Virus record (IMG/VR): IMGVR_UViG_2554235184_000006
Reading direction: 5' to 3' (one strand)
Origin: a virus
Taxonomy: Duplodnaviria; Heunggongvirae; Uroviricota; Caudoviricetes
DNA: 9,170 bases
A model generated the notes under the pieces. It was given only the letters and a program-made list of their open reading frames with translations, searched no databases and was not told the origin of the DNA. Position 1 is the first letter of the stretch, and the number at the start of each line of letters is the position of its first letter. The position numbers were made by a program, and so were the translations under genes. Shown here piece by piece: positions 1-9,170 of the stretch.

Positions 1-21
1 CCGTGCCACCGGAGAAAACCG

Positions 22-300
22 ATGGCACGCAACGCAAAATATTACAATCATGATAATTCGACCGTTCTTGCCCACACGCACGAGCGGTATTCTCATGCAT
101 TTAAGTCAGACTGGTACCAGCATCCCCCATGCACTGAAGAACAGGCCGAGTGGCTAATTCAGTGCTACCGCAGACACGGATACGAGATTAAGAAAGCCCT
201 CAGCCTCGATTATCGTCACTGGATAATCTCCGTCAGGCTCCCTTACTCCGAACGGCCACCGCGTCCGTCCCGCACATTCCAGCAACGCATCTGGAGGTAA
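22..300 (+). CDS. Hypothetical nin-region protein, 92 aa
   Basis: ATG at 22 preceded by GGAGA (9-13); stop TAA 298-300 sits 1 nt before the next gene start. Lies upstream of the DUF968/rusA/Q cluster, as nin-region genes do. No family recognised from the translation. Confidence 0.5.
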   Translation: MARNAKYYNHDNSTVLAHTHERYSHAFKSDWYQHPPCTEEQAEWLIQCYRRHGYEIKKALSLDYRHWIISVRLPYSERPPRPSRTFQQRIWR

Positions 301-301
301 C

Positions 302-1360
302 GTGCGGGTATTACTTCGACCTGTTCTGGTACCGGAACTTGGGCTGGTGGTGCTAAAACCGGGCCGTGAATCCATGCCGGTATTCCACAATACCCGGGTA
401 CTGGTGGAGCCGGAACCGAAAAGCATGCGTAATCTGTCGTCCGGGGTCGTTCCTGCCGTTCGCCAGCCGCTGGCGGAGGATAAATCATTACTGCCATTTT
501 TCAGCGACGAACGAGTGATTCGTGCTGCTGGTGGCGCTGGCGCATTGTCTGACTGGTTACTGCGCCATGTTAAATCCTGCCAGTGGCCACACGGCGATTA
601 TCACCACAGTGAAACCGTCATTCACCGTTATGGTACCGGCGCAATGGTGTTGTGCTGGCACTGCGACAACCAGCTGCGCGACCAGACCTCCGAATCACTC
701 GGGCAACTTGCTCACCAAAACCTGTCTGCATGGATGATTGACGTCATACGCCATGCAATGAATGGCTCGCAGGAACGGGAATTATCGCTGGCTGAATTAT
801 CCTGGTGGGCGGTCCGCAATCAGGTGGCGGACGCGCTACCGGAAGCGGTATTACGTCGTTCGCTGGGGTTGCGTGCGGAAAAAATCCGCTCAATGTACCG
901 TGAAAGCGACATCGTACCGGGAGAGCAGACCGCCACCAGCATACTGAAACAGCGCACAAAAAATCTTGCGCCGCTGCCTCACGCCCACCAGCAACAGAAC
1001 CCACCACAGGAAAAGACGGTGGTCAGCATTGCCGTTGATCCGGAATCTCCGGCTCAGTATCTCCAGCGCCAGAAACCACAACGGGAAGAGATGCCTGTAT
1101 ACACGCGCTGGGTAAAAACGCAGAAATGCATGACGTGTGGCAATCAGGCAGATGATCCGCATCACATCATTGGTCATGGACTGGGAGGGATGGGAACAAA
1201 GGCTGACGATTTGTTTGTTATTCCGCTGTGTCGTAAATGCCATAACGAACTACACGCCGGGGTAAAAGATTTTGAAGAAAAACACGGTAGTCAGTTGTTG
1301 TTGCTGATTCGTTTTTTAATGCACGCGAGAAATTCGGGTGTTCTGAAGTGGAAAGCATAA
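302..1360 (+). CDS. DUF968 (YdfU-like) prophage protein with C-terminal HNH-like Cys/His motif, 352 aa
   Basis: GTG start at 302 with GGAGG at 293-297; stop TAA 1358-1360 abuts the rusA ATG at 1361. C-terminal motif CMTCGNQADDPHHIIGHG...LCRKCHNELH looks like an HNH/zinc-finger nuclease fold. From memory this resembles YdfU-type proteins found next to Q genes in E. coli prophages. Start codon is uncertain (alternative ATG at 374). Confidence 0.65.
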   Translation: MRVLLRPVLVPELGLVVLKPGRESMPVFHNTRVLVEPEPKSMRNLSSGVVPAVRQPLAEDKSLLPFFSDERVIRAAGGAGALSDWLLRHVKSCQWPHGDYHHSETVIHRYGTGAMVLCWHCDNQLRDQTSESLGQLAHQNLSAWMIDVIRHAMNGSQERELSLAELSWWAVRNQVADALPEAVLRRSLGLRAEKIRSMYRESDIVPGEQTATSILKQRTKNLAPLPHAHQQQNPPQEKTVVSIAVDPESPAQYLQRQKPQREEMPVYTRWVKTQKCMTCGNQADDPHHIIGHGLGGMGTKADDLFVIPLCRKCHNELHAGVKDFEEKHGSQLLLLIRFLMHARNSGVLKWKA

Positions 1361-1729
1361 ATGACCGAACGCATAGAATTTGTTTTGCCTTACTCGCCGA
1401 CGGTGAACACTTACTGGCGACGCCGTGGCAGCACATATTTTGTATCAAAAGCCGGGGAGCGTTATCGCCGGGCAGTGGCGCTTATTGTTCGCCAGCAGCG
1501 ACTGAAATTAAGCCTGTCCGGACGGCTGGCAATAAAAATTATTGCAGAGCCACCGGATAAGCGTCGTCGTGACCTGGACAATATTCTGAAAGCACCACTG
1601 GATGCGCTGACGCACGCGGGGTTGTTAATGGACGATGAGCAGTTTGATGAAATCAATATTGTACGTGGCCAGCCAGTATCTGGTGGACGGCTGGAGATAA
1701 GAATTACAGAGGTGGGTGTGCATGAATAA
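1361..1729 (+). CDS. rusA: RusA-family Holliday junction resolvase, 122 aa
   Basis: Translation contains the conserved RusA acidic motif PDKRRRDLDN and ends GGRLEIRITE, closely matching E. coli RusA as I remember it (PDRRRRDLDN...GGRLELTITE). Size and position just upstream of Q are typical. Confidence 0.9.
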   Translation: MTERIEFVLPYSPTVNTYWRRRGSTYFVSKAGERYRRAVALIVRQQRLKLSLSGRLAIKIIAEPPDKRRRDLDNILKAPLDALTHAGLLMDDEQFDEINIVRGQPVSGGRLEIRITEVGVHE

Positions 1730-2411
1730 CCAGTATTTACAGTTTGTTCGTGAGCAACTCATGATTGCCACTGCAGATCTCAGTGGGTCGACAAAATGCC
1801 AGCTGGAAGCCTGGCAGGAAAATGCCCTGTTCGATACAGGGCGTTACAGACGCAAAAAAATTCGTTACCGCGATGAGGTAACCGGAAAAATGATCACGCG
1901 GGATAATCCCCCGATCCAGGGTAAACAATCACTGGCGAAAGGCTCATCAATTGCGCTGGTCAGTCCTGTTGAGTTTGCAACATCATCGTGGCGGCGTGCT
2001 GTTCTGGAACTGGAAGAACATCAGAAGGCGTGGTTGTTGTGGTGTTATGGCGGAAACATTTGCTGGGAGCATCAGATCGCGATAACGCAGTGGGGGTGGA
2101 GTGAATTTAAAACTCAGTCCGGCTCCAGAAAAATTGCAGTGAAAACGCTGGAGCGTGTGAAGAAGTTGATCTGGCTGGCGGCACAGGATGTCAGAGGATG
2201 GGTTACCGGGTGTGAGGTCTACCAGAGACAGGAGCTTGCCAGACTGTGTGGAGTTAAGCCTGATAACTGGAGCCATAATTATGCGAACTACTGGCGTGAG
2301 ATGTGCGATATTTTTAAGCGCCTCGATAGAGAATCCTTGATTTGCTCCGTGAAAATAAGAGCGCAACAAAAAGCGACCTTTTCACGACGAGATATTGCAA
2401 AAGTCAATTAA
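1722..2411 (+). CDS. Q: Late-gene antitermination protein Q (phage 21/82-type), about 229 aa
   Basis: ATG at 1722 overlaps the rusA stop (TAA 1727-1729), indicating translational coupling; the ORF track's GTG at 1716 is a less likely start. Sits directly upstream of a promoter-like region, intrinsic terminators and the lysis cassette. N-terminus MNNQYLQFVREQL matches my recollection of QuuQ-type Q proteins. Family assignment not verified. Confidence 0.7.
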   Translation: MNNQYLQFVREQLMIATADLSGSTKCQLEAWQENALFDTGRYRRKKIRYRDEVTGKMITRDNPPIQGKQSLAKGSSIALVSPVEFATSSWRRAVLELEEHQKAWLLWCYGGNICWEHQIAITQWGWSEFKTQSGSRKIAVKTLERVKKLIWLAAQDVRGWVTGCEVYQRQELARLCGVKPDNWSHNYANYWREMCDIFKRLDRESLICSVKIRAQQKATFSRRDIAKVN

Positions 2412-2435
2412 ATCGCGTATGTTTCGTATAAATCT
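2395..2435 (+). promoter_or_regulatory. Candidate late promoter (PR'-like) with possible Q-utilisation region
   Basis: TTGCAA (2395-2400), 17-bp spacer, TATGTT (2418-2423); a second -10-like TATAAAT at 2427-2433 could act as a sigma70 pause element as in lambda PR'. Sequence-only prediction. Confidence 0.25.
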
Positions 2436-2472
2436 GATATTTTGCCGATTTTGTACGTGATGGCAAAGTAAG

Positions 2473-2500
2473 AAAAAACCACCGCCAGGTGGTTTTTTTT
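2473..2500 (+). terminator. Rho-independent terminator (candidate tR')
   Basis: AAAAAACCACC (2473-2483), loop GCCA, GGTGGTTTTTT then 8 T in total (2493-2500). A-tract/T-tract symmetry suggests it could work in both directions. About 62 nt after the Q stop. Confidence 0.6.
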
Positions 2501-2623
2501 ATGTCCGAAAATCGCGTCAGTACAGTAAACGCGCTGGTGGTTGCGAATACGGGTCTTTCAGCTTGCCGGCTTTTTCGACAAGAGTTATTGGTATGTCACG
2601 TTAACCGGAAAAGGGAAAAAGAC

Positions 2624-2821
2624 ATGCTAAAACAGCAGGATATGACAGAAGCCGCCAGAGTGGTGTTTAATGAATTAAGCGTTACCGACCCGGCGACAGT
2701 CAGGGAGATTGCACAGAATACTTACCTTTCACGCGAACGCTGCCAGTTAATACTGACCCAGCTTGTTATGGCGGGTCTGGCAGACTATCAGTTTGGTTGT
2801 TACAGACACCTTCAGTCCTGA
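2624..2821 (+). CDS. Small winged-helix protein (PapI/FaeA-like), 65 aa
   Basis: ATG 2624 with AAGGGA RBS (2611-2616). Segment TVREIAQNTYLSRERCQLILTQLVMAGLA resembles the recognition-helix region of PapI/FaeA-type regulators. The track ORF 2489..2821 starts with GTG inside the terminator T-tract and has no RBS, so the shorter form is preferred. Confidence 0.45.
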   Translation: MLKQQDMTEAARVVFNELSVTDPATVREIAQNTYLSRERCQLILTQLVMAGLADYQFGCYRHLQS

Positions 2822-2835
2822 AGGCTTTTTTATTT
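2809..2835 (+). terminator. Rho-independent terminator overlapping the stop codon of the small wHTH gene
   Basis: CCTTC (2809-2813) pairs with GAAGG (2820-2824), followed by TTTTTTATTT (2826-2835). Short stem, so moderate confidence. Confidence 0.45.
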
Positions 2836-3134
2836 GTGGTAAATGGGCGGCTGGTGGGTGTGGTGGTTGTTGCTTTCCCGTTGCTGAAAAAGAAAACGCC
2901 AGACTGTTAGCCGGGTATCAGTTAGCGGGAGAAATTTTTAAATACTTCACAATTCAGGCGGTTGACTGTTGTCTGGTTTGCGGGGAGTTTGTTAAAAGAA
3001 ACTGGCATGGTGAATCCCCCTGTGCGGAGGGGCAATCAGCGAGTAGGTATATGGGATAATCGCGGATTCAGGTGCTGGTACTGAATTCACCGGGAGGCAC
3101 CCGGCACCATGCAATGGCACATAGCGCCACTCTC

Positions 3135-3170
3135 CAGCCCCTCTCCGGAGGGGCTGTTTATATTGATTTT
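3135..3170 (+). terminator. Rho-independent terminator at the edge of the AT-rich island
   Basis: Perfect 9-bp stem CAGCCCCTC (3135-3143), loop TCCG, GAGGGGCTG (3148-3156), followed by TTTATATTGATTTT. Sits between upstream + strand transcription and the 3' end of the minus-strand gene 3191..3526. Confidence 0.6.
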
Positions 3171-3190
3171 GTCAGATGTGAGTAAACTCC

Positions 3191-3526
3191 TTATGGACTT
3201 TGTTGTTTTAGCCCATAAGGACATATTTGCAGAGTGCAACGGTTATTAAAGCATTCATTCAATACGTTATCTGTATTTGTAGGGCATTCCTGGCTGTTTT
3301 TGATTAAATTCCAGAATGTTTTATTGAATGGTACTACGTTGTAAATGGTTACAGGTAGCACTTTGTTATTGAGCATGATACCTGTGTGAGTCAGTGTAAA
3401 TATACTTTCAGGAGGTAAGAAAGCATCCGATTGATACCAGATTATTAATTTTATTTTACTCCATATGACTGAAAAAGATATTCCGCATGATGGCTGGATA
3501 ACTGTATCAATCACAATCCACTTCAT
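3191..3526 (-). CDS. Hypothetical Cys-containing protein in an AT-rich island, 111 aa
   Basis: Minus-strand ATG (3524-3526) with AAGGAA RBS 5-6 nt upstream. Composition is strongly AT-rich compared with flanking phage genes. Opposite orientation to the late operon. Six Cys, four of them in the C-terminal [26 protein letters not shown]. No family recognised. Confidence 0.55.
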
Positions 3527-3786
3527 TTAGTTTCCTTGTTTATGCCTTGCTGGTGATGTTCTGAAAAGTATAAATGATATTTTTGATTGTAAACCATAGA
3601 GCAGAATTATTTTTCTGATGTTGTTTATTGTTTATTTAAATGCAGGGTGGTTTATATCTCGTCTTGTAGTTTATCCATGCATATCTGCTTGATGATGAGG
3701 TTTTTATTTAAGGTATGGTTTTGTGTTTTTTCTGTATTACATGTCAGGTATTTTAAAGAATCATTTTTCAGATGGTGGAAAGAACC

Positions 3787-3975
3787 ATGGCATTTAAACA
3801 CTATGATGTTGTCAGGGCGGCGTCGCCGTCAGATCTTGCGGAAAAGCTGACACATAAACTGAAAGAGGGCTGGCAGCCGTTTGGTAGTCCGGTGGCCATA
3901 ACCCCTTATACCCTGATGCAGGCGATTGCAGCAGAAGGTGATGTGGTGGTCAGTGGTGCAACTGAGCCGGAGTGA
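3787..3975 (+). CDS. Small conserved phage protein (possibly the DUF1737-type protein found upstream of holins), 62 aa
   Basis: ATG 3787 with GGTGGAAAG upstream; the in-frame ATG at 3772 has no RBS. Translation MAFKHYDVVRAASPSDLAEKLTHKLKEGWQPFGSPVAITPYTLMQAIAAEGDVV looks, from memory, like the small protein commonly annotated just upstream of S in Stx-type lambdoid prophages. The family name is unverified. Confidence 0.55.
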   Translation: MAFKHYDVVRAASPSDLAEKLTHKLKEGWQPFGSPVAITPYTLMQAIAAEGDVVVSGATEPE

Positions 3976-4217
3976 TACTACGTCATCGTACTGGCCCGGC
4001 ATTCCAGGCCATAAAAGACGGTCTGGCAGTGGGACTAAATGCACTGACGCTGACGGATATTACCAAAAATGCAACGTATGGCGTTGAGATAGAAAGTCTG
4101 GTGCTGGAGATAAATGCACCGGCATCATCATAAAAAGTGAGCCAGTCAAATGGAAGGTATCGTTAAACTCACCGGTAGTGTCAGTGGGTCGTCTGAGACG
4201 CCTGCATGAGTTATCAG

Positions 4218-4250
4218 AGCCATCAGTACTTAACTGGTGGCTTTTTTATT
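4218..4250 (+). terminator. Rho-independent terminator immediately upstream of the holin gene
   Basis: AGCCATCAG (4218-4226), loop TACTTAA, CTGGTGGCT (4234-4242; 9 bp with one G-U pair), then TTTTTTATTGTTG (4243 onward). Confidence 0.65.
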
Positions 4251-4282
4251 GTTGTCAGCTTCCGGATAACGGGAGACGGGGT

Positions 4283-4498
4283 ATGTACCAGATGGAAAAA
4301 ATCACAACAGGTGTGTCATACACCACGTCAGCGGTGGGAACGGGCTACTGGTTCCTGCAGTTGCTGGACAGGGTTTCCCCGTCTCAGTGGGCGGCAATAG
4401 GCGTGCTGGGGAGTCTGCTGTTTGGGCTGCTGACATATCTGACTAACCTGTATTTCAAAATCAAAGAGGACCGGCGTAAGGCGGCGCGGGGAGAGTAA
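4283..4498 (+). CDS. S: Class II pinholin (phage 21 S21-like) with dual-start motif, 71 aa
   Basis: ATG 4283 and ATG 4292 (M-Y-Q-M) with GGGAGA RBS (4271-4276). Translation ...[66 protein letters not shown] closely matches the S21 pinholin as I remember it, with two TMDs and a charged C-terminus. The track ORF 4178..4498 is an upstream in-frame extension that spans the terminator. Confidence 0.85.
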
Positions 4499-4502
4499 AG
4501 TG

Positions 4503-5393
4503 ATGAATAAAAAATATGAACTGGTTGTTAAGGGGATAAATAATTACGGGGATAAGGTTACTGTTACTGTGAAGTCGGAAGGTGACGGGCAAGCGTCGCT
4601 GTTGTTGCCAGATGTGGCGATTAGTCTTGACCGTACTGAAGGTGCCACGCTGGAGTTTTACGAAGCTGAGGCGAAAAAGCAGGCGAAGCAGTTTTTCATG
4701 GATGTTGCTGCCGGGTTATGTGAATGGAACGAACCGTTGCCGGAAAAGCGCCCCGTAATTTTAGAGGCGCAGGATGTGTTGATAACCTACAAAGGAAAGC
4801 TACCGGGAAGAATTACTTGTTCTCTGAAGATGCCGCCGTCAACACTGCGGTCAGAAAAAGATGATGTTGAATCACGTATTGAAAAACTGGAGAGCTACGT
4901 CGTTGAGCTGAATAAGAAATGGTCGATATTGGTGCCTTCTGGCGATGAAAAGCAGTTTGCTGCGTTTGACGATTATTGTCGGAAAGTGATGAGCAGAAAT
5001 CTCGCAGAGTGTTTCAGTATTCATAATGATAATTTCAGTGACCCGGAATGGGAGTGTAACCGGCCATCCTTTGTTGTATCCGGTGATGCTGGGAAAATAA
5101 CCATCTCAGAAAATGGGAAAGTAACACCTCCATCGCACCAGCACAGTGAGGAGCTCATTGAATTTGCCATTGATTACCTGAAGAACAATAAAAAGCAGGG
5201 GCTGATGAAGCGCGTTGGCCGTTGCATGGGATATCTTCAGGTAGCCGCTGAGATTGAAGCGCTGGCCAGTGGTGCTGATAAGGATGCAATTGTGCGGGAG
5301 GCTCTTCTTCGTGATTTTAATACTCCACCCTTTAAAAAAGTGCCGGCTTACTGGCTTCATCCGGGGCTGACTTATCTTAAAGTGCGTATTTAG
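4503..5393 (+). CDS. Hypothetical hydrophilic protein inserted between holin and endolysin, 296 aa
   Basis: ATG 4503, 5 nt after the holin stop (TAA 4496-4498), with GGGGAGAG RBS (4487-4494); stop TAG 5391-5393. Long uninterrupted ORF with no TM segment or signal peptide and a K/E-rich composition. No family recognised. Confidence 0.7.
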   Translation: MNKKYELVVKGINNYGDKVTVTVKSEGDGQASLLLPDVAISLDRTEGATLEFYEAEAKKQAKQFFMDVAAGLCEWNEPLPEKRPVILEAQDVLITYKGKLPGRITCSLKMPPSTLRSEKDDVESRIEKLESYVVELNKKWSILVPSGDEKQFAAFDDYCRKVMSRNLAECFSIHNDNFSDPEWECNRPSFVVSGDAGKITISENGKVTPPSHQHSEELIEFAIDYLKNNKKQGLMKRVGRCMGYLQVAAEIEALASGADKDAIVREALLRDFNTPPFKKVPAYWLHPGLTYLKVRI

Positions 5394-5429
5394 TGGGCCA
5401 GGGACAGCGGCTGAATATTTAATATATCC

Positions 5430-5963
5430 ATGAACACCAAAATCAAATACGGCCTGTCGGCTGCCGTTCTGGCGCTGATTGCCGCTGGTGCGCCTGCGCC
5501 TGACATTCTCGACCAGTTTCTGGATGAAAAGGAAGGCAACCACACCACGGCATACCGTGATGGTGCAGGTATCTGGACCATCTGCCGTGGTGCCATCATG
5601 GTGGATGGCAAACCTGTCGTTCCGGGCATGAAGTTGTCGAAGGAAAAATGCGACCAGGTTAACGCCATTGAGCGTGATAAAGCGCTGGCGTGGGTGGAGA
5701 AAAACATCAGAGTGCCGCTGACCGAACCCCAGAAAGCGGGGATCGCGTCATTCTGTCCGTACAACATTGGTCCCGGTAAGTGTTTCCCGTCGACGTTTTA
5801 CAGACGAATTAATGCTGGTGATCGAAAAGGTGCCTGCGAAGCGATTCGCTGGTGGATTAAGGACGGTGGCAGAGACTGCCGTATTCGTTCAAACAACTGT
5901 TACGGTCAGGTATCCCGTCGTGACCAGGAGAGCGCGCTGGCGTGCTGGGGTATCGACAGATAA
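5430..5963 (+). CDS. R: SAR endolysin (phage 21 R-type true lysozyme, GH24), 177 aa
   Basis: N-terminal Gly/Ala-rich weakly hydrophobic segment GLSAAVLALIAAGAPAP typical of a signal-arrest-release domain. Catalytic E-8aa-D-5aa-T spacing is present in EGNHTTAYRDGAGIWT. Overall similarity to P21 R and DLP12 RrrD-type lysozymes, from memory. Confidence 0.9.
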   Translation: MNTKIKYGLSAAVLALIAAGAPAPDILDQFLDEKEGNHTTAYRDGAGIWTICRGAIMVDGKPVVPGMKLSKEKCDQVNAIERDKALAWVEKNIRVPLTEPQKAGIASFCPYNIGPGKCFPSTFYRRINAGDRKGACEAIRWWIKDGGRDCRIRSNNCYGQVSRRDQESALACWGIDR

Positions 5964-6119
5964 GCAGAATATTTTGCTGAAAAATGAGGAATGGCCACGC
6001 GGGCGGATAACACGAAATCCTGCGAACTGGCGAAACGTAAGTGAATAAAAGTAAAAACCCCGTTTGTTGGCACCAAGCGAGGTTTTGTGTTTCTGACCTT
6101 GAGTAAGGCAAGGGAGAAC

Positions 6120-6302
6120 ATGGCGAAGTGTAAACGAATTCTGTTGAGGTTGACTATGAAAAATGGCCTTGAACTGAAAGCGCCTGTAACTGATGACATC
6201 AGCAGAGCACTGGCTTTTGCCATTAAGTGGGTGGCGGTCGGTGTTGCTGTGTCCCCGATGCTGTATGGGCTGGCAAAACTGGTCATTGCGTTGAAATCGT
6301 GA
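6120..6302 (+). CDS. Small protein with C-terminal hydrophobic segment, 60 aa (alternative start 6156)
   Basis: ATG 6120 with AGGGAGA 2-3 nt upstream (short spacing); an alternative ATG at 6156 has GAGG at 6146-6149. C-terminal [27 protein letters not shown] is TM-like. Stop TGA 6300-6302 overlaps the strong RBS of the next ORF. Family unknown. Confidence 0.4.
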
Positions 6303-6316
6303 AGGGAGGATTAAGC

Positions 6317-6448
6317 ATGTCAGACAAACTCATAACGCTGGCGAAGATCCTCTGTGTAATTGTCGGCATTTCATTTTCACTAATGCTGGTTGCTCTTTTT
6401 CTTTCCATGGCCTGGATGATGTTGTCTTCGTCGGGGTTGCTGGGGTGA
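6317..6448 (+). CDS. Small hydrophobic membrane peptide, 43 aa
   Basis: ATG 6317 with strong RBS GGGAGGA (6304-6310). Translation [43 protein letters not shown] is almost entirely one long hydrophobic stretch. Stop TGA 6446-6448 overlaps the alternative Rz GTG start. Confidence 0.5.
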
Positions 6449-6456
6449 ACATAAAC

Positions 6457-6918
6457 CGAATGCTTTCCGCGTTTATCGTTATTCTGCTGGTGGCCTGTGG
6501 TGCGCTGTGGATGGCAACAGACCATTACCGTGATAACGCGATTACCTACAAAGCGCAGCGCGATAACAAAGCCAGTGAACTGAAGCTGGCGAACGCAACC
6601 ATTACTGATATGCAGGTGCGCCAGCGCGATGTTGCTGCGCTCGATGCAAAATACTCGAGGGAATTAGCCGATGCGAGAGCTGAAAATGAAACTCTTCGCG
6701 CTGACGTTGCCGCTGGTCGTAAGCGCCTGCGGATCAACGCCACCTGTCCAGGCTCCGTGCGTGAAGCCCCCACCACCTCCGGCGTGGATAATGCAACCGG
6801 CCCCCAACTGGCAGACACCGTTACACGGGATTATTTCACCCTCAGAGAGCGGCTGATGACGATGCACAAGCAACTGGAAGGGGCACAGGACTATATCCGC
6901 ACTCAGTGCCTGAAATAA
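6457..6918 (+). CDS. Rz: Rz i-spanin (inner-membrane spanin subunit), 153 aa
   Basis: Translation ...[71 protein letters not shown]...[19 protein letters not shown] is nearly collinear with lambda Rz as I remember it. N-terminal TMD present. Start is ATG 6457 or in-frame GTG 6445. Confidence 0.85.
6671..6856 (+). CDS. Rz1: Rz1 o-spanin (outer-membrane lipoprotein), embedded in Rz in the +1 frame, 61 aa
   Basis: ATG 6671 with GAGGGA RBS (6657-6662). Lipobox-like VVSAC followed by the proline-rich [14 protein letters not shown], matching lambda Rz1. Fully nested inside Rz, the classic spanin arrangement. Confidence 0.85.
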
Positions 6919-7228
6919 GTTTTGTTGATGCGCCGTATCGTCGCTATATTCCCTCATTAACAGAGACCGCAGCCCGACAGGGAGACTCCTCTGCGCGAGT
7001 GTGCGGGGATAATTAAAAACGATGCACACCGGGTTTTTACCGCGTTAATGATTCGCGGGTTTATCCCGGTGCGATGGTGGAAGAAACAGGAAGCTGTATT
7101 ACAGAAAGTGCTACTACTGTATCCCGATGCGATGTATGTAATGTGAGTCAGATAATGGCACAGGATGTGGTGATGTGGCAGTCTGGAACACAGGATATAT
7201 TGTCAGAATAAGACCCGTAGGAATAAAA

Positions 7229-7555
7229 ATGAAAAGACGCCTTTTACTACTTTTTCTGTTATCTGTCCTGGCAGTGGGATGCTCGCAGCAAAAAGCTGAT
7301 GAGCCCCGGCAATTAGTGACGGTGTATCCACGATATCCGGAATATGCTGCAGCAAATTATATCAAGGGGCTGGTTGAGGTTAAGTTCGATATTGGTGCTG
7401 ATGGGACTGTGACACGGATCGTTTTTCTCCGCTCAGAGCCTCATAATTTGTTTCGTGATGAAGTGGTGAAGGCCATGGCGAAATGGCGATTTGAAAAGAA
7501 TCGCCCCTGTCAGGGAGTGAAGAGACAATTTATCTTTACGCCGTCACGTCCTTGA
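7229..7555 (+). CDS. Lipoprotein with TonB C-terminal-like domain, 108 aa
   Basis: ATG 7229 with AGGAA RBS (7219-7223). Signal peptide MKRRLLLLFLLSVLAVGC with a relaxed lipobox. The mature part YPRYPEYAAANYIKGLVEVKFDIGADGTVTRIVFLRSEPHNLFRDEVVKAMAKWRFEK fits the TonB_C pattern (compare E. coli TonB GQVKVKFDVTPDGRV...FEREVKNAMRRWRYEP). The track ORF 7175..7555 is an N-terminal extension without RBS. Confidence 0.7.
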   Translation: MKRRLLLLFLLSVLAVGCSQQKADEPRQLVTVYPRYPEYAAANYIKGLVEVKFDIGADGTVTRIVFLRSEPHNLFRDEVVKAMAKWRFEKNRPCQGVKRQFIFTPSRP

Positions 7556-7647
7556 TGCTTCCAGGTAGAGAGGGGCTGGACGCAGGAGAAAAATGAAAGA
7601 GCCAGCGGTTATATTTTTGTCATGGCTGACGAGGAATGATGGAAGAA

Positions 7648-7670
7648 GGCGTTGTATGCCACACAACGCC
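7648..7670. terminator. Hairpin between convergent genes (candidate bidirectional terminator)
   Basis: GGCGTTGT (7648-7655), loop ATGCCAC, ACAACGCC (7663-7670), followed on the + strand by a T-rich run. Lies between the 3' ends of the + lipoprotein gene and the - ORF. Confidence 0.4.
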
Positions 7671-7677
7671 TCACTGT

Positions 7678-7857
7678 TCATTTCTTCTTTTTCTCTGGTG
7701 GAACCCGATGAATAAGAGTTGCACTGGTTTCCGATGAGATGGCGATATACTCGGGCAAAGTATGCTGGCAGTTTTCCAACTGGTCAAAAATACCTGCTCT
7801 CGTCTGTTGCAATGCCTGCAGCATGCGGCGGCAATGCGCCTTGCTTTTACTAACCAT
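7678..7857 (-). CDS. Small hypothetical protein, 59 aa
   Basis: Minus-strand ATG (7855-7857) with strong RBS GAGGAAGGAAAG immediately upstream. The longer track ORF 7678..8031 has no RBS at its start and overlaps the upstream gene. C-terminal KKKK tail. Family unknown. Confidence 0.4.
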   Translation of the reverse strand: MVSKSKAHCRRMLQALQQTRAGIFDQLENCQHTLPEYIAISSETSATLIHRVPPEKKKK

Positions 7858-7918
7858 CTTTCCTTCCTCTATCAGTCGCTGCGTGAACTCATCATGTAAT
7901 ACCAGGTAAATGCGGATG

Positions 7919-8170
7919 TTATCGGTTTTGGCTACGCAGCATAGTACAAAACGGACAGGTGCATCCCGGGACGGGGGAGGCGTCACATGTCCCTGTGATG
8001 GTTGTTCCGGGTAATGCACTGTGTGGGGCATAAAAATGTCCGATAATTTTACTTTCTACCGCAGTTAGTTGATTCGTTGGTCCTGGTAGCACATTGGGCG
8101 AGGATTTAAATGCCAGGCAACTGAAGGATGATGTTGCAAGGGAGATAGCGAGAATATTTCTGATTTTCAT
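7919..8170 (-). CDS. Small secreted Cys-rich protein, 83 aa precursor
   Basis: Minus-strand ATG (8168-8170) with AGAGG about 9 nt upstream. N-terminus MKIRNILAISLATSSFSCLA looks like a Sec signal peptide. Mature region has a Cys cluster TGTCDASPVPGCTCPFC. The track ORF 7919..8239 extends 23 codons further upstream without RBS. Confidence 0.5.
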   Translation of the reverse strand: MKIRNILAISLATSSFSCLAFKSSPNVLPGPTNQLTAVESKIIGHFYAPHSALPGTTITGTCDASPVPGCTCPFCTMLRSQNR

Positions 8171-8289
8171 TTGATGATGCCTCTGTGTGAAATGACGGTA
8201 AACGACGCACTTGTGCCGGCACATAATAGCAAGCACCATAATAGATCAGATTCGATTCTTGCTGTAAGTGATAATTATTCTCGTTTTCG

Positions 8290-8480
8290 GGTCCTTTCCG
8301 TCGATCCAACAGGTTACGGGGCGGCGACCTCGCGGGTTTTCGCTATTTATGAAAATTTTCCGGGGAAAATCATGTCGGTACTTCTCGAACATAACTATTT
8401 GTTTTTTCTAATATCGAATCCGTAAAAGGTCCGACATGAAAACGCCTAAAAAAGTCATTTTCGGGCACTTTCATGTCGGC
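8290..8480. other. cos site: cosQ-like segment, cosN with 12-nt cohesive end GGGCGGCGACCT at 8319-8330, and cosB-like region
   Basis: 8291-8365 matches the lambda genome junction as I remember it (...CAGGTTACG / GGGCGGCGACCTCGCGGGTTTTCGCTATTTATGAAAATTTTCCGG). Downstream the sequence diverges from lambda cosB and instead carries a TCATGTCGG repeat. Located immediately upstream of Nu1. Confidence 0.85.
8370..8479. repeat. Three copies of TCATGTCGG (direct, inverted, direct): candidate terminase small-subunit R sites of cosB
   Basis: TCATGTCGG at 8370-8378, its reverse complement CCGACATGA at 8431-8439, and TCATGTCGG again at 8471-8479, with an AT-rich possible IHF-bending region between the first two. 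This mirrors the lambda R3 / R2 (inverted) / R1 layout. Confidence 0.5.
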
Positions 8481-8506
8481 CCCTGTATTTATTGTGAGAC
8501 TGTTTC

Positions 8507-9052
8507 ATGAAGGTTAATAAAAAGAAACTTGCCGAAATTTTCAACGTGGATCCGCGAACGATTGAACGCTGGCAGTCTCAGGGACTCCCTTGCGTCTCCG
8601 GAGGTGGTAAGGGCGTTGAATCTGTATTTGATACCGCCATGGCAATTCAGTGGTATGCGCAGAGGGAAGCTGATATCGAAAATGAAAAACTCCGTAAAGA
8701 GGTTGAGGATTACAGGGCTGCCAGTGAGGCAGATCTCCAGCCTGGGACTATTGAGTACGAACGCCATCGACTTACGCGTGCGCAGGCCGACGCACAGGAG
8801 CTGAAAAATGCCAGAGACTCCGCTGAAGTGGTGGAAACCGCATTCTGTACTTTCGTGTTGTCACGGATCGCAGGTGAAATTGCCAGTATTCTTGACGGGA
8901 TCCCTCTCTCGGTACAGCGGCGTTTTCCGGAACTGGAAAACCGACATGTTGATTTCCTGAAACGGGATATCATCAAAGCCATGAACAAAGCAGCCGCGCT
9001 GGATGAACTGATACCGGGGTTGCTGAGTGAATATATCGAACAGTCAGATTGA
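8507..9052 (+). CDS. nu1: Terminase small subunit (Nu1-like), 181 aa
   Basis: C-terminal two-thirds ([74 protein letters not shown]...[43 protein letters not shown]) is nearly identical to lambda Nu1 as I remember it. The N-terminal wHTH domain is recognisably related but divergent. Confidence 0.9.
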
Positions 9053-9170
9053 TATTCTGCGGCGTGATGTACGCGCCGGGCTGCGAGCCCTGTTCAGGCC
9101 GGAGCCACAGACTGCCGTTGAATGGGCGGATGCCAGTTACTATCTCCCGAAAGAATCCGCATACCAGGAA
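9037..9170 (+). CDS. A: Terminase large subunit (gpA-like), N-terminal fragment truncated by the window end
   Basis: GTG at 9037 overlaps the 3' end of nu1, as in lambda where A overlaps Nu1. Translation [48 protein letters not shown] matches the lambda gpA N-terminus (...[32 protein letters not shown]). No stop codon in the window. Confidence 0.8.

Follow-up and report, generated by a model that had tools for sequence, protein, structure and literature searches.

The AT-rich island in the Q–S interval of a lambdoid Escherichia coli prophage very probably represents the iraL anti-adaptor cassette, next to the terminator of the STnc100 small RNA

Which product is encoded by a sharply AT-rich segment in the late region of a lambdoid prophage, and would the lysogen express it? 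The segment lies in a window of 9,170 nucleotides (the whole stretch of DNA that was analyzed). The original prediction described it as a horizontally acquired island with a minus-strand gene for a cysteine-rich protein, transcribed from its own promoter, shielded by a plus-strand terminator, and serving as a lysogenic-conversion, exclusion or defense factor. We consider it very probable that a lambdoid E. coli prophage here carries the iraL cassette, encoding an anti-adaptor that stabilizes RpoS, and that the hairpin at the edge of the island is the terminator of the small RNA STnc100. The finding is real but already known, iraL being a characterized prophage gene.

Composition, boundaries and gene content of the island

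By direct computation, the GC content of positions 3135–3790 is 0.341 (0.345 for the iraL open reading frame and 0.304 for the 260 bp of intergenic DNA at 3527–3786), against 0.507 in the left flank (1–3134) and 0.493 in the right flank (3791–9170). A windowed calculation agrees, with a trough of 0.30–0.36 between approximately 3200 and 3800 and values of 0.45–0.56 on either side, and the sharp AT-richness is thereby borne out. The same holds for the placement between Q and S, as the island is flanked by a Q gene and a class II holin gene (Table 1), the latter followed by lysozyme, Rz and Nu1 genes. In related phages, the interval is occupied by stx1 or stx2c. A tRNA search of the whole window found none.

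Comparison with related phages defines the boundaries more closely. Homology to the backbones of PPyecE_EH1910, JLK-2012 and YYZ-2008 ends at approximately 3121–3163 and restarts at approximately 3780–3794. In PPyecE_EH1910, which lacks iraL, the match spans the STnc100 terminator to approximately 3163 and restarts at the ribosome-binding site and ATG of nanS-p (approximately 3780–3787). Based on this alignment, the iraL cassette stands in place of an unrelated spacer of approximately 213 bp that otherwise separates the STnc100 terminator from the start codon of nanS-p. Since the backbone homology runs through the terminator in a phage without iraL, the terminator belongs to the backbone and is older than the cassette. 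The predicted extent of 3135–3790 is therefore kept for approximately 3166–3783, whereas the terminator falls outside the acquired part. The interpretation as horizontally acquired cargo in the Q–S interval is supported. A left edge at 3121, taken from the comparison with JLK-2012, was rejected: the 3′ end of STnc100 is merely divergent in that phage, and both PPyecE_EH1910 and phage 1717 have the terminator itself.

Table 1. Positions of the features discussed in the text, in window coordinates.
Feature	Position	Strand	Basis or remark
Q (PF06323)	1716–2411		Lambdoid late region
Terminator-like hairpins between Q and STnc100	2473–2498, 2809–2824	+	Terminator scan
STnc100-family sRNA gene	2976–3165	+	Rfam RF02076; phage backbone, outside the cassette
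STnc100 intrinsic terminator	3135–3165	+	Stem CAGCCCCTC/GAGGGGCTG, loop TCCG, T-rich tail
Acquired AT-rich iraL cassette	3166–3783		About 620 bp, GC about 0.33; phage comparison and composition
iraL CDS	3191–3526	minus	111 aa, ATG start; ORF list and 100% aa identity to CFT073 IraL
iraL promoter fragment (−100 to +33)	3527–3659	minus	Equivalent of the published sufficient fragment
Shine-Dalgarno sequence AAGGA	3533–3537	minus	6 nt before the iraL ATG; read from the sequence
iraL +1	3559	minus	Published 5′-RACE sequence ACATCACCAGCAAGGCATAAACAAGGAAAC begins there
−10 hexamer TATACT	3567–3572	minus	Assigned in this analysis
−35 hexamer TTTACA	3588–3593	minus	Assigned in this analysis; 15-nt spacer
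PhoP-box-like direct repeat TGTTTA-N5-TATTTA	3622–3638	+	−63 to −79 from the iraL start; weak lead
nanS-p (yjhS) sialate O-acetylesterase deletion remnant	3787–4133	+	DUF1737 ORF and C-terminal fragment
DUF1737 N-terminal ORF	3787–3975	+	Pfam DUF1737, E = 4e-17
nanS-p C-terminal fragment ORF, 53 aa	3972–4133	+	Matches 582–632 of the 634-position phrog_143
Class II holin	4283–4498		Lambdoid late region

The minus-strand gene of 111 codons was found as predicted, with a good ribosome-binding site. Its product is identical over 111 of 111 residues to WP_000871291.1 (c1429) of CFT073, and the coding sequences agree at 334 of 336 nucleotides, the two differences being synonymous. This is also the protein accession in the genome that is 100% identical to the window, and c1429 was named iraL in a later study of CFT073 (PMC12890032). 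The protein matches the NCBIfam model for IraM (NF007393) with 162 bits against a cutoff of 121 (residues 1–110, model positions 1–113 of 114) and chain A of PDB entry 8TWD, which is IraM, with E = 9e-32 over residues 1–78. These matches, with the identity to the CFT073 protein, do away with the statement that it belongs to no recognized family. The IraL subtype is defined by at least 95% identity to CFT073 iraL across the entire coding sequence (PMC4045071), and the window gene lies well within this range; judged by sequence, it is IraL, a member of the published IraM/IraL/RssC family of anti-adaptors.

In CFT073, the identical protein (Hryckowian et al. 2014, mBio, PMC4045071) has the same neighbors, namely STnc100 and, on the opposite side, the DUF1737 remnant and holin. 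DNA identity over 2850–4300 is 98.6%, and 10 of 621 cassette positions differ. The prophages are otherwise mosaic: that of the window has a different Q (PF06323 type), different lysis and terminase segments and, unlike CFT073, neither IS200 nor tRNA genes in the stretch from Q to STnc100. The CFT073 locus has been termed the ‘potB genomic island’ in a paper that does not mention STnc100 (PMC4045071).

PGAP names the product ‘anti-adapter protein IraM’. Membership of the same protein family would also suit a gene behaving strictly as iraM, that is, normally silent, induced through PhoP/PhoQ upon Mg2+ starvation, and encoding a protein that clamps both domains of RssB. The closest comparison is K-12 IraM (YcgW/b1160; structure 8TWD with RssB), which shares the family and the fold, has five cysteines at the same positions, and is likewise AT-rich cargo of a prophage remnant. 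It differs in its length (107 aa, against 111 for IraL), in an unrelated promoter region and in the lack of an adjoining STnc100. Identity to K-12 IraM is 59.5% in amino acids and 71% in nucleotides (58.9% was reported between IraL and IraM; PMC4045071), far below the at least 95% required of a K-12 iraM orthologue, and no DNA homology between iraL and K-12 iraM was found outside the coding sequence. Because identity and promoter homology both fall short, we do not regard the gene, on its sequence, as IraM sensu stricto.

Fold, RssB contacts and cysteines of the protein

An AF2 model built with 13 family members predicts a β-barrel and a helix in residues 1–76 (strands within 2–66, helix at 69–76), with pLDDT values of 64–81 over residues 1–78 (moderate confidence) and below 50 over residues 79–111. 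Foldseek placed 8twd_A first (E = 2.6e-7, TM 0.68), followed by the PmrD structures 4HN7 and 2JSO. Residues 1–78 thus probably form an IraM/PmrD-like β-barrel, which would be the part touching RssB.

The second and third structural matches could also point to a connector of the PmrD kind whose main target is another response regulator, such as PmrA, the more so as PmrD is the only PDB fold that IraM resembles (PMC10844676) and homologues bear precomputed Pfam tags for PF11183. The tags are at odds with our hmmscan, in which neither IraL nor K-12 IraM matched any Pfam family at E ≤ 10, PF11183 (PmrD) included. When the family alignment was used as a profile against PDB sequences, it matched IraM alone and no PmrD. 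Given an identity to PmrD of 15%, and with RssB binding and effects on sigma-S already published (PMC4045071), a main role on another regulator is highly improbable.

The residues that would contact RssB are partly conserved. Three contact clusters are listed for IraM in the IraM–RssB structure paper (PMC10844676), and 10 of their 14 residues are identical in IraL. All five residues of cluster I, which contacts the RssB N-terminal domain (NTD; I4, I6, W22, K26, and I42), are shared by K-12 IraM and IraL. The divergence falls in clusters II (3/5 identical) and III (2/4), which contact the C-terminal domain (CTD) and linker of RssB; here five of nine residues are the same and the changes are T13S, L75I, H63N, and I64V. 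This pattern appears to fit the published binding of IraL to the RssB NTD only (PMC4045071), and stands against a strict IraM clamping both domains.

The protein contains five cysteines (residues 14, 81, 92, 97, and 102) and not six as originally counted; that four of them are C-terminal was correct. Across 14 family members (54–98% identity to IraL), C81, P82, C92, C97, I101, C102, P103, and G105 are invariant, while C14 is replaced by serine in several. The tail of IraL thereby follows the motif C-P-x9-10-C-x4-C-x3-I-C-P-x-G, which is invariant and under purifying selection; dN/dS against paralogues is 0.12–0.19, tail included. AF2 modeled residues 79–111 without confidence, and so gave neither support for nor evidence against the geometry of a zinc knuckle. 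In IraM, residues 79–107 were removed for crystallography due to proteolysis, and the tail was termed less conserved and flexible (PMC10844676). It has been handled as dispensable, although its four cysteines never vary in the family.

Promoter, terminator and neighboring genes

The iraL start was mapped by 5′ RACE on unstressed log-phase CFT073 (PMC4045071). Over its first 29 nt, the RACE sequence is identical to the window from position 3559 on, so that the start lies at the equivalent base, and the promoter fragment differs from that of CFT073 by three SNPs (−28, −1, and +31). The claim that the gene has its own promoter, active in the lysogen, is supported by this near-identity and by the log-phase RACE result. 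The spacer between the hexamers that we assigned is 15 nt, which is short for sigma-70, and a sigma-70 consensus scan missed the experimentally mapped promoter. Two minus-strand sites that the scan did report (3634–3606, and 3475–3448 within the CDS) were given no weight.

Several observations concern regulation. In JJ1886, the second copy, iraL2, has a point mutation in the promoter (PMC4045071), and iraL mRNA is more abundant at 37°C than at 23°C, by 1.6 log2 (PMC12890032). The level of IraL is higher in a fur mutant. A direct Fur site was unsupported in a scan of the promoter region, the best match having eight mismatches and 478 of 500 shuffles being as good.

The upstream sequence is where a strict IraM behavior finds some further backing. 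The PhoP-box-like repeat has a single mismatch to KGTTTA-N5-KGTTTA, and an AT-rich upstream region is typical of inducible genes silenced by H-NS. Battesti and colleagues are said to have linked H-NS to iraM in 2012. When the 260-bp region was shuffled 500 times, 27 of the shuffles equaled or bettered the repeat. In published work, IraM is induced by Mg2+ starvation and touches both RssB domains, in contrast to IraL, whose expression and effect were seen in unstressed log phase and whose binding is confined to the NTD (PMC4045071, PMC10844676). A strict IraM is an unlikely description of this gene, and we retain IraL.

The 260-bp region had also been proposed to hold a divergent promoter shared with a small plus-strand gene at 3787. 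That gene is present on the plus strand, but it is the 5′ remnant of the late-operon gene nanS-p, and the consensus scan found no plus-strand promoter-like site in 3527–3786; the sharing of a promoter is therefore abandoned. Comparison with related loci shows that 3787–4006 corresponds to the first 220 nt of nanS-p and that 3991–4300 matches its 3′ end and downstream sequence, with approximately the last 150 nt of the gene kept. The deletion junction falls within 3991–4006, and PGAP flags the remnant as a pseudogene.

On the other side of iraL, the STnc100 gene scores 132.4 bits with RF02076, for which the gathering score is 47 (model positions 1–206 of 206, E = 1e-29). The match to the STnc100/PasD family covers the full length, terminator included. 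The terminator hairpin (3135–3156 in the terminator scan) has a 9-bp stem with seven GC pairs, followed by TTTATATTGATTTT, and aligns to the terminal hairpin of the RF02076 consensus; folding the RNA of 3120–3180 gave a minimum free energy of −21.6 kcal/mol (z = −2.75). A strong plus-strand terminator at the 3′ side of the gene was thus correctly predicted, but not its role as a shield from late transcription, as it is the 3′ end of STnc100 and part of the backbone, and is subject to read-through under Q. RNA polymerase modified by a lambdoid Q protein passes intrinsic terminators. The hairpin would therefore stop only transcription that is not antiterminated, in the lysogen, and not late transcription.

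STnc100 and its relative PasD are prophage sRNAs; in phages of the Stx type, they are encoded upstream of a gene for a sialate esterase (Zhu, Shabalina & Storz 2026 preprint). In Stx2 phages, stx2 is followed by STnc100 after 75 nt, and homologues were seen by RT-qPCR in STEC vesicles (PMC12370729). Unlike at the usual STnc100 loci, where the sRNA lies upstream of the esterase gene, the two are here parted by the iraL cassette, and the esterase itself is deleted. The iraL and STnc100 genes converge, with 25 nt between the sRNA 3′ end and the iraL stop codon. All iraL-type loci compared (those of CFT073, phages 1717 and 640R1, E. albertii, and a second E. coli) likewise have a convergent STnc100, at 10–25 nt. 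STnc100 occurs without iraL in phage JLK-2012, and is absent at K-12-type iraM loci and at the Citrobacter homologue.

The terminator scan found no canonical intrinsic terminator for iraL itself. As its stop codon lies 10–25 nt from the 3′ end of STnc100, the iraL transcript may enter the sRNA gene, either ending in STnc100 or running antisense through it, which may couple the levels of both RNAs. Likewise, the invariant cysteine tail could sense a metal or the redox state and thereby control the stability or activity of the anti-adaptor. The idea of iraL and STnc100 as a convergent module inherited together, with an anti-adaptor that is itself gated by a signal, is speculative, and we give it a small chance.

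Role in the lysogen and occurrence in other genomes

[quoted passage not shown] With a role in stabilizing sigma-S published for the identical protein, the suggested function in lysogenic conversion is supported.

The alternative function put forward, phage exclusion or anti-phage defense by the lysogen, did not hold up. The moron slot, the separate promoter and the AT-rich composition would suit such a factor, PHROGs assigns the family no function, and a higher level of sigma-S could, speculatively, change phage susceptibility in an indirect manner. A search of PADLOC-DB 2.0 gave no family at E ≤ 1, the gene product is a single small protein without an enzymatic or sensor domain, and for the identical protein the RssB target and the sigma-S stability phenotype have already been demonstrated (PMC4045071). 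A dedicated defense role is accordingly very hard to credit.

The iraL cassette would then act as follows. In the repressed prophage, iraL would be transcribed leftward from its own sigma-70 promoter, as is known for the identical protein elsewhere. IraL would bind the N-terminal receiver domain of RssB, the ClpXP adaptor, and RssB would hand less sigma-S (RpoS) to ClpXP, raising the half-life and level of sigma-S during exponential growth. A lysogen pre-armed for stress in this way would represent a case of lysogenic conversion. The STnc100 terminator and the two hairpins between Q and STnc100 (Table 1) could keep rightward transcription that is not antiterminated off iraL in the lysogen. After induction, Q-modified polymerase would be expected to pass all three and run antisense over iraL.

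In Stx2c and Stx2a phages (1717 gp43, 2851), the same slot is taken by an IraM-family gene that has the orientation of iraL and is flanked by stx2B/STnc100 and nanS-p. The slot is therefore a recurrent home for the family. The gene of the 1717 type is convergent on the STnc100 terminator and has conserved C-terminal cysteines, and its promoter-proximal part (approximately 114 nt) is homologous to that of iraL at 74.6%. Its protein of 107 aa shows 72% identity to IraL and 65% to IraM and is therefore a third subtype. The phages that carry it are intact, with toxin genes and a nanS-p of full length, and no experimental work on this subtype was found in the literature.

Among 5426 complete E. coli genomes, megablast with positions 3000–4000 detected the segment in 2803, with at least 80% of it in 1379. 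The cassette alone was found in 1446 of the 5426, with a coverage of at least 80% in 1428 and below 80% in 18; identity was at least 99% in 936 genomes, 95–99% in 483, and 90–95% in 27. With the cassette in approximately a quarter of complete E. coli genomes, it would be a common prophage route to rewire the general stress response of the host. A scan of species representatives with only two peptide patterns gave six loci, in Escherichia, Shigella, and a single Citrobacter; Salmonella RssC was not among them.

The rewiring of the stress response by prophages through the iraL cassette has already been published. Our check adds the fixed slot of iraL between STnc100 and nanS-p, in an interval that also holds Shiga toxin genes, the unstudied subtype beside stx2c, the invariant set of four C-terminal cysteines and the inconsistent annotation of the gene. 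In a 30-row spread sample of the cassette matches, all were annotated as an intact IraM CDS. Many phage records leave this gene unannotated.

Annotation and distribution of the IraM/IraL family

Databases are at odds over the protein encoded by iraL, the gene for an RssB anti-adaptor. PGAP names it IraM, although its subtype is IraL, and the PHROGs entry for the family (phrog_4407) is of unknown function. Precomputed tags place the family in PF11183; contrary to these tags, hmmscan against current Pfam gave no match for either IraL or its K-12 paralogue IraM. A third IraM-family subtype, of 107 aa, is encoded directly downstream of stx2cB/STnc100 in the Stx2-converting phage 1717 (positions 4501–4824 of the locus compared). 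Phage 2851 has it too, as do numerous records of Stx2c/Stx2a phages. Most phage records leave this subtype unannotated, and an experimental study of it was not found in the literature.

The IraL protein of E. albertii NBRC 107761 is 100% identical to that of the window, which implies a recent, phage-borne transfer between species. Downstream of iraL, this E. albertii locus and phage vB_EcoS-640R1 carry two tandem copies of the prophage sRNA gene STnc100, whereas the window has one.

Hairpins and gene remnants around Q and the lysis genes

Approximately 60–85 nt past the stop codon of Q lies a perfect hairpin flanked by A/T runs, which is probably the tR' terminator of a short pR' transcript. 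The segment containing it resembles two Rfam families, isrK and STnc370, at scores below threshold. A second hairpin, with a 12-bp stem and a T-run, is situated just 5' of the holin gene (start at 4283), in the same position as the prophage sRNAs PasA and PasC, reported between esterase and holin; an Rfam search with a cutoff as loose as E ≤ 1 did not match it to any family.

The sialate esterase gene nanS-p (yjhS) is present as a remnant with an internal deletion, that joins the first 220 nt to the last ~150 nt through a 16-bp overlap (3991–4006); two ORFs remain, one for DUF1737 and one for 53 aa of the C-terminal end. In the 297-aa ORF beyond the holin gene, the first ~100 residues correspond to DUF1327/YdfR and the other ~195 residues are without a Pfam match. 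In strain 7/2, which is nearly identical, PGAP annotates the YdfR part as a truncated pseudogene. No homology to uropathogenic E. coli CFT073 was found across 4838–5424.

Coordinates of features in the window
Feature	Position	Strand	Remark
Hairpin past Q	2473–2498	bidirectional	
isrK/STnc370 resemblance	2412–2502		
iraL	3191–3526	−	
nanS-p remnant	3787–4133		
Hairpin before holin	4216–4244	+	
297-aa ORF	4500–5393		
Second cargo region	7175–8239		between Rz and Nu1
TonB_C-domain ORF	7175/7229–7555	+	second cargo region
Two overlapping ORFs	7678–8031 and 7919–8239	−	second cargo region; no Pfam family
Mosaic breakpoint	8401/8402		upstream of Nu1 gene

Second cargo region and mosaic breakpoint

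Besides the iraL cassette, the window contains a second cargo region. Further downstream, the homology of strain 7/2 and CFT073 to the window ends at a mosaic breakpoint. This junction is natural: NZ_CP169035.1 (one example) has both the iraL cassette and the same terminase segment, at an identical spacing of 5084 bp.
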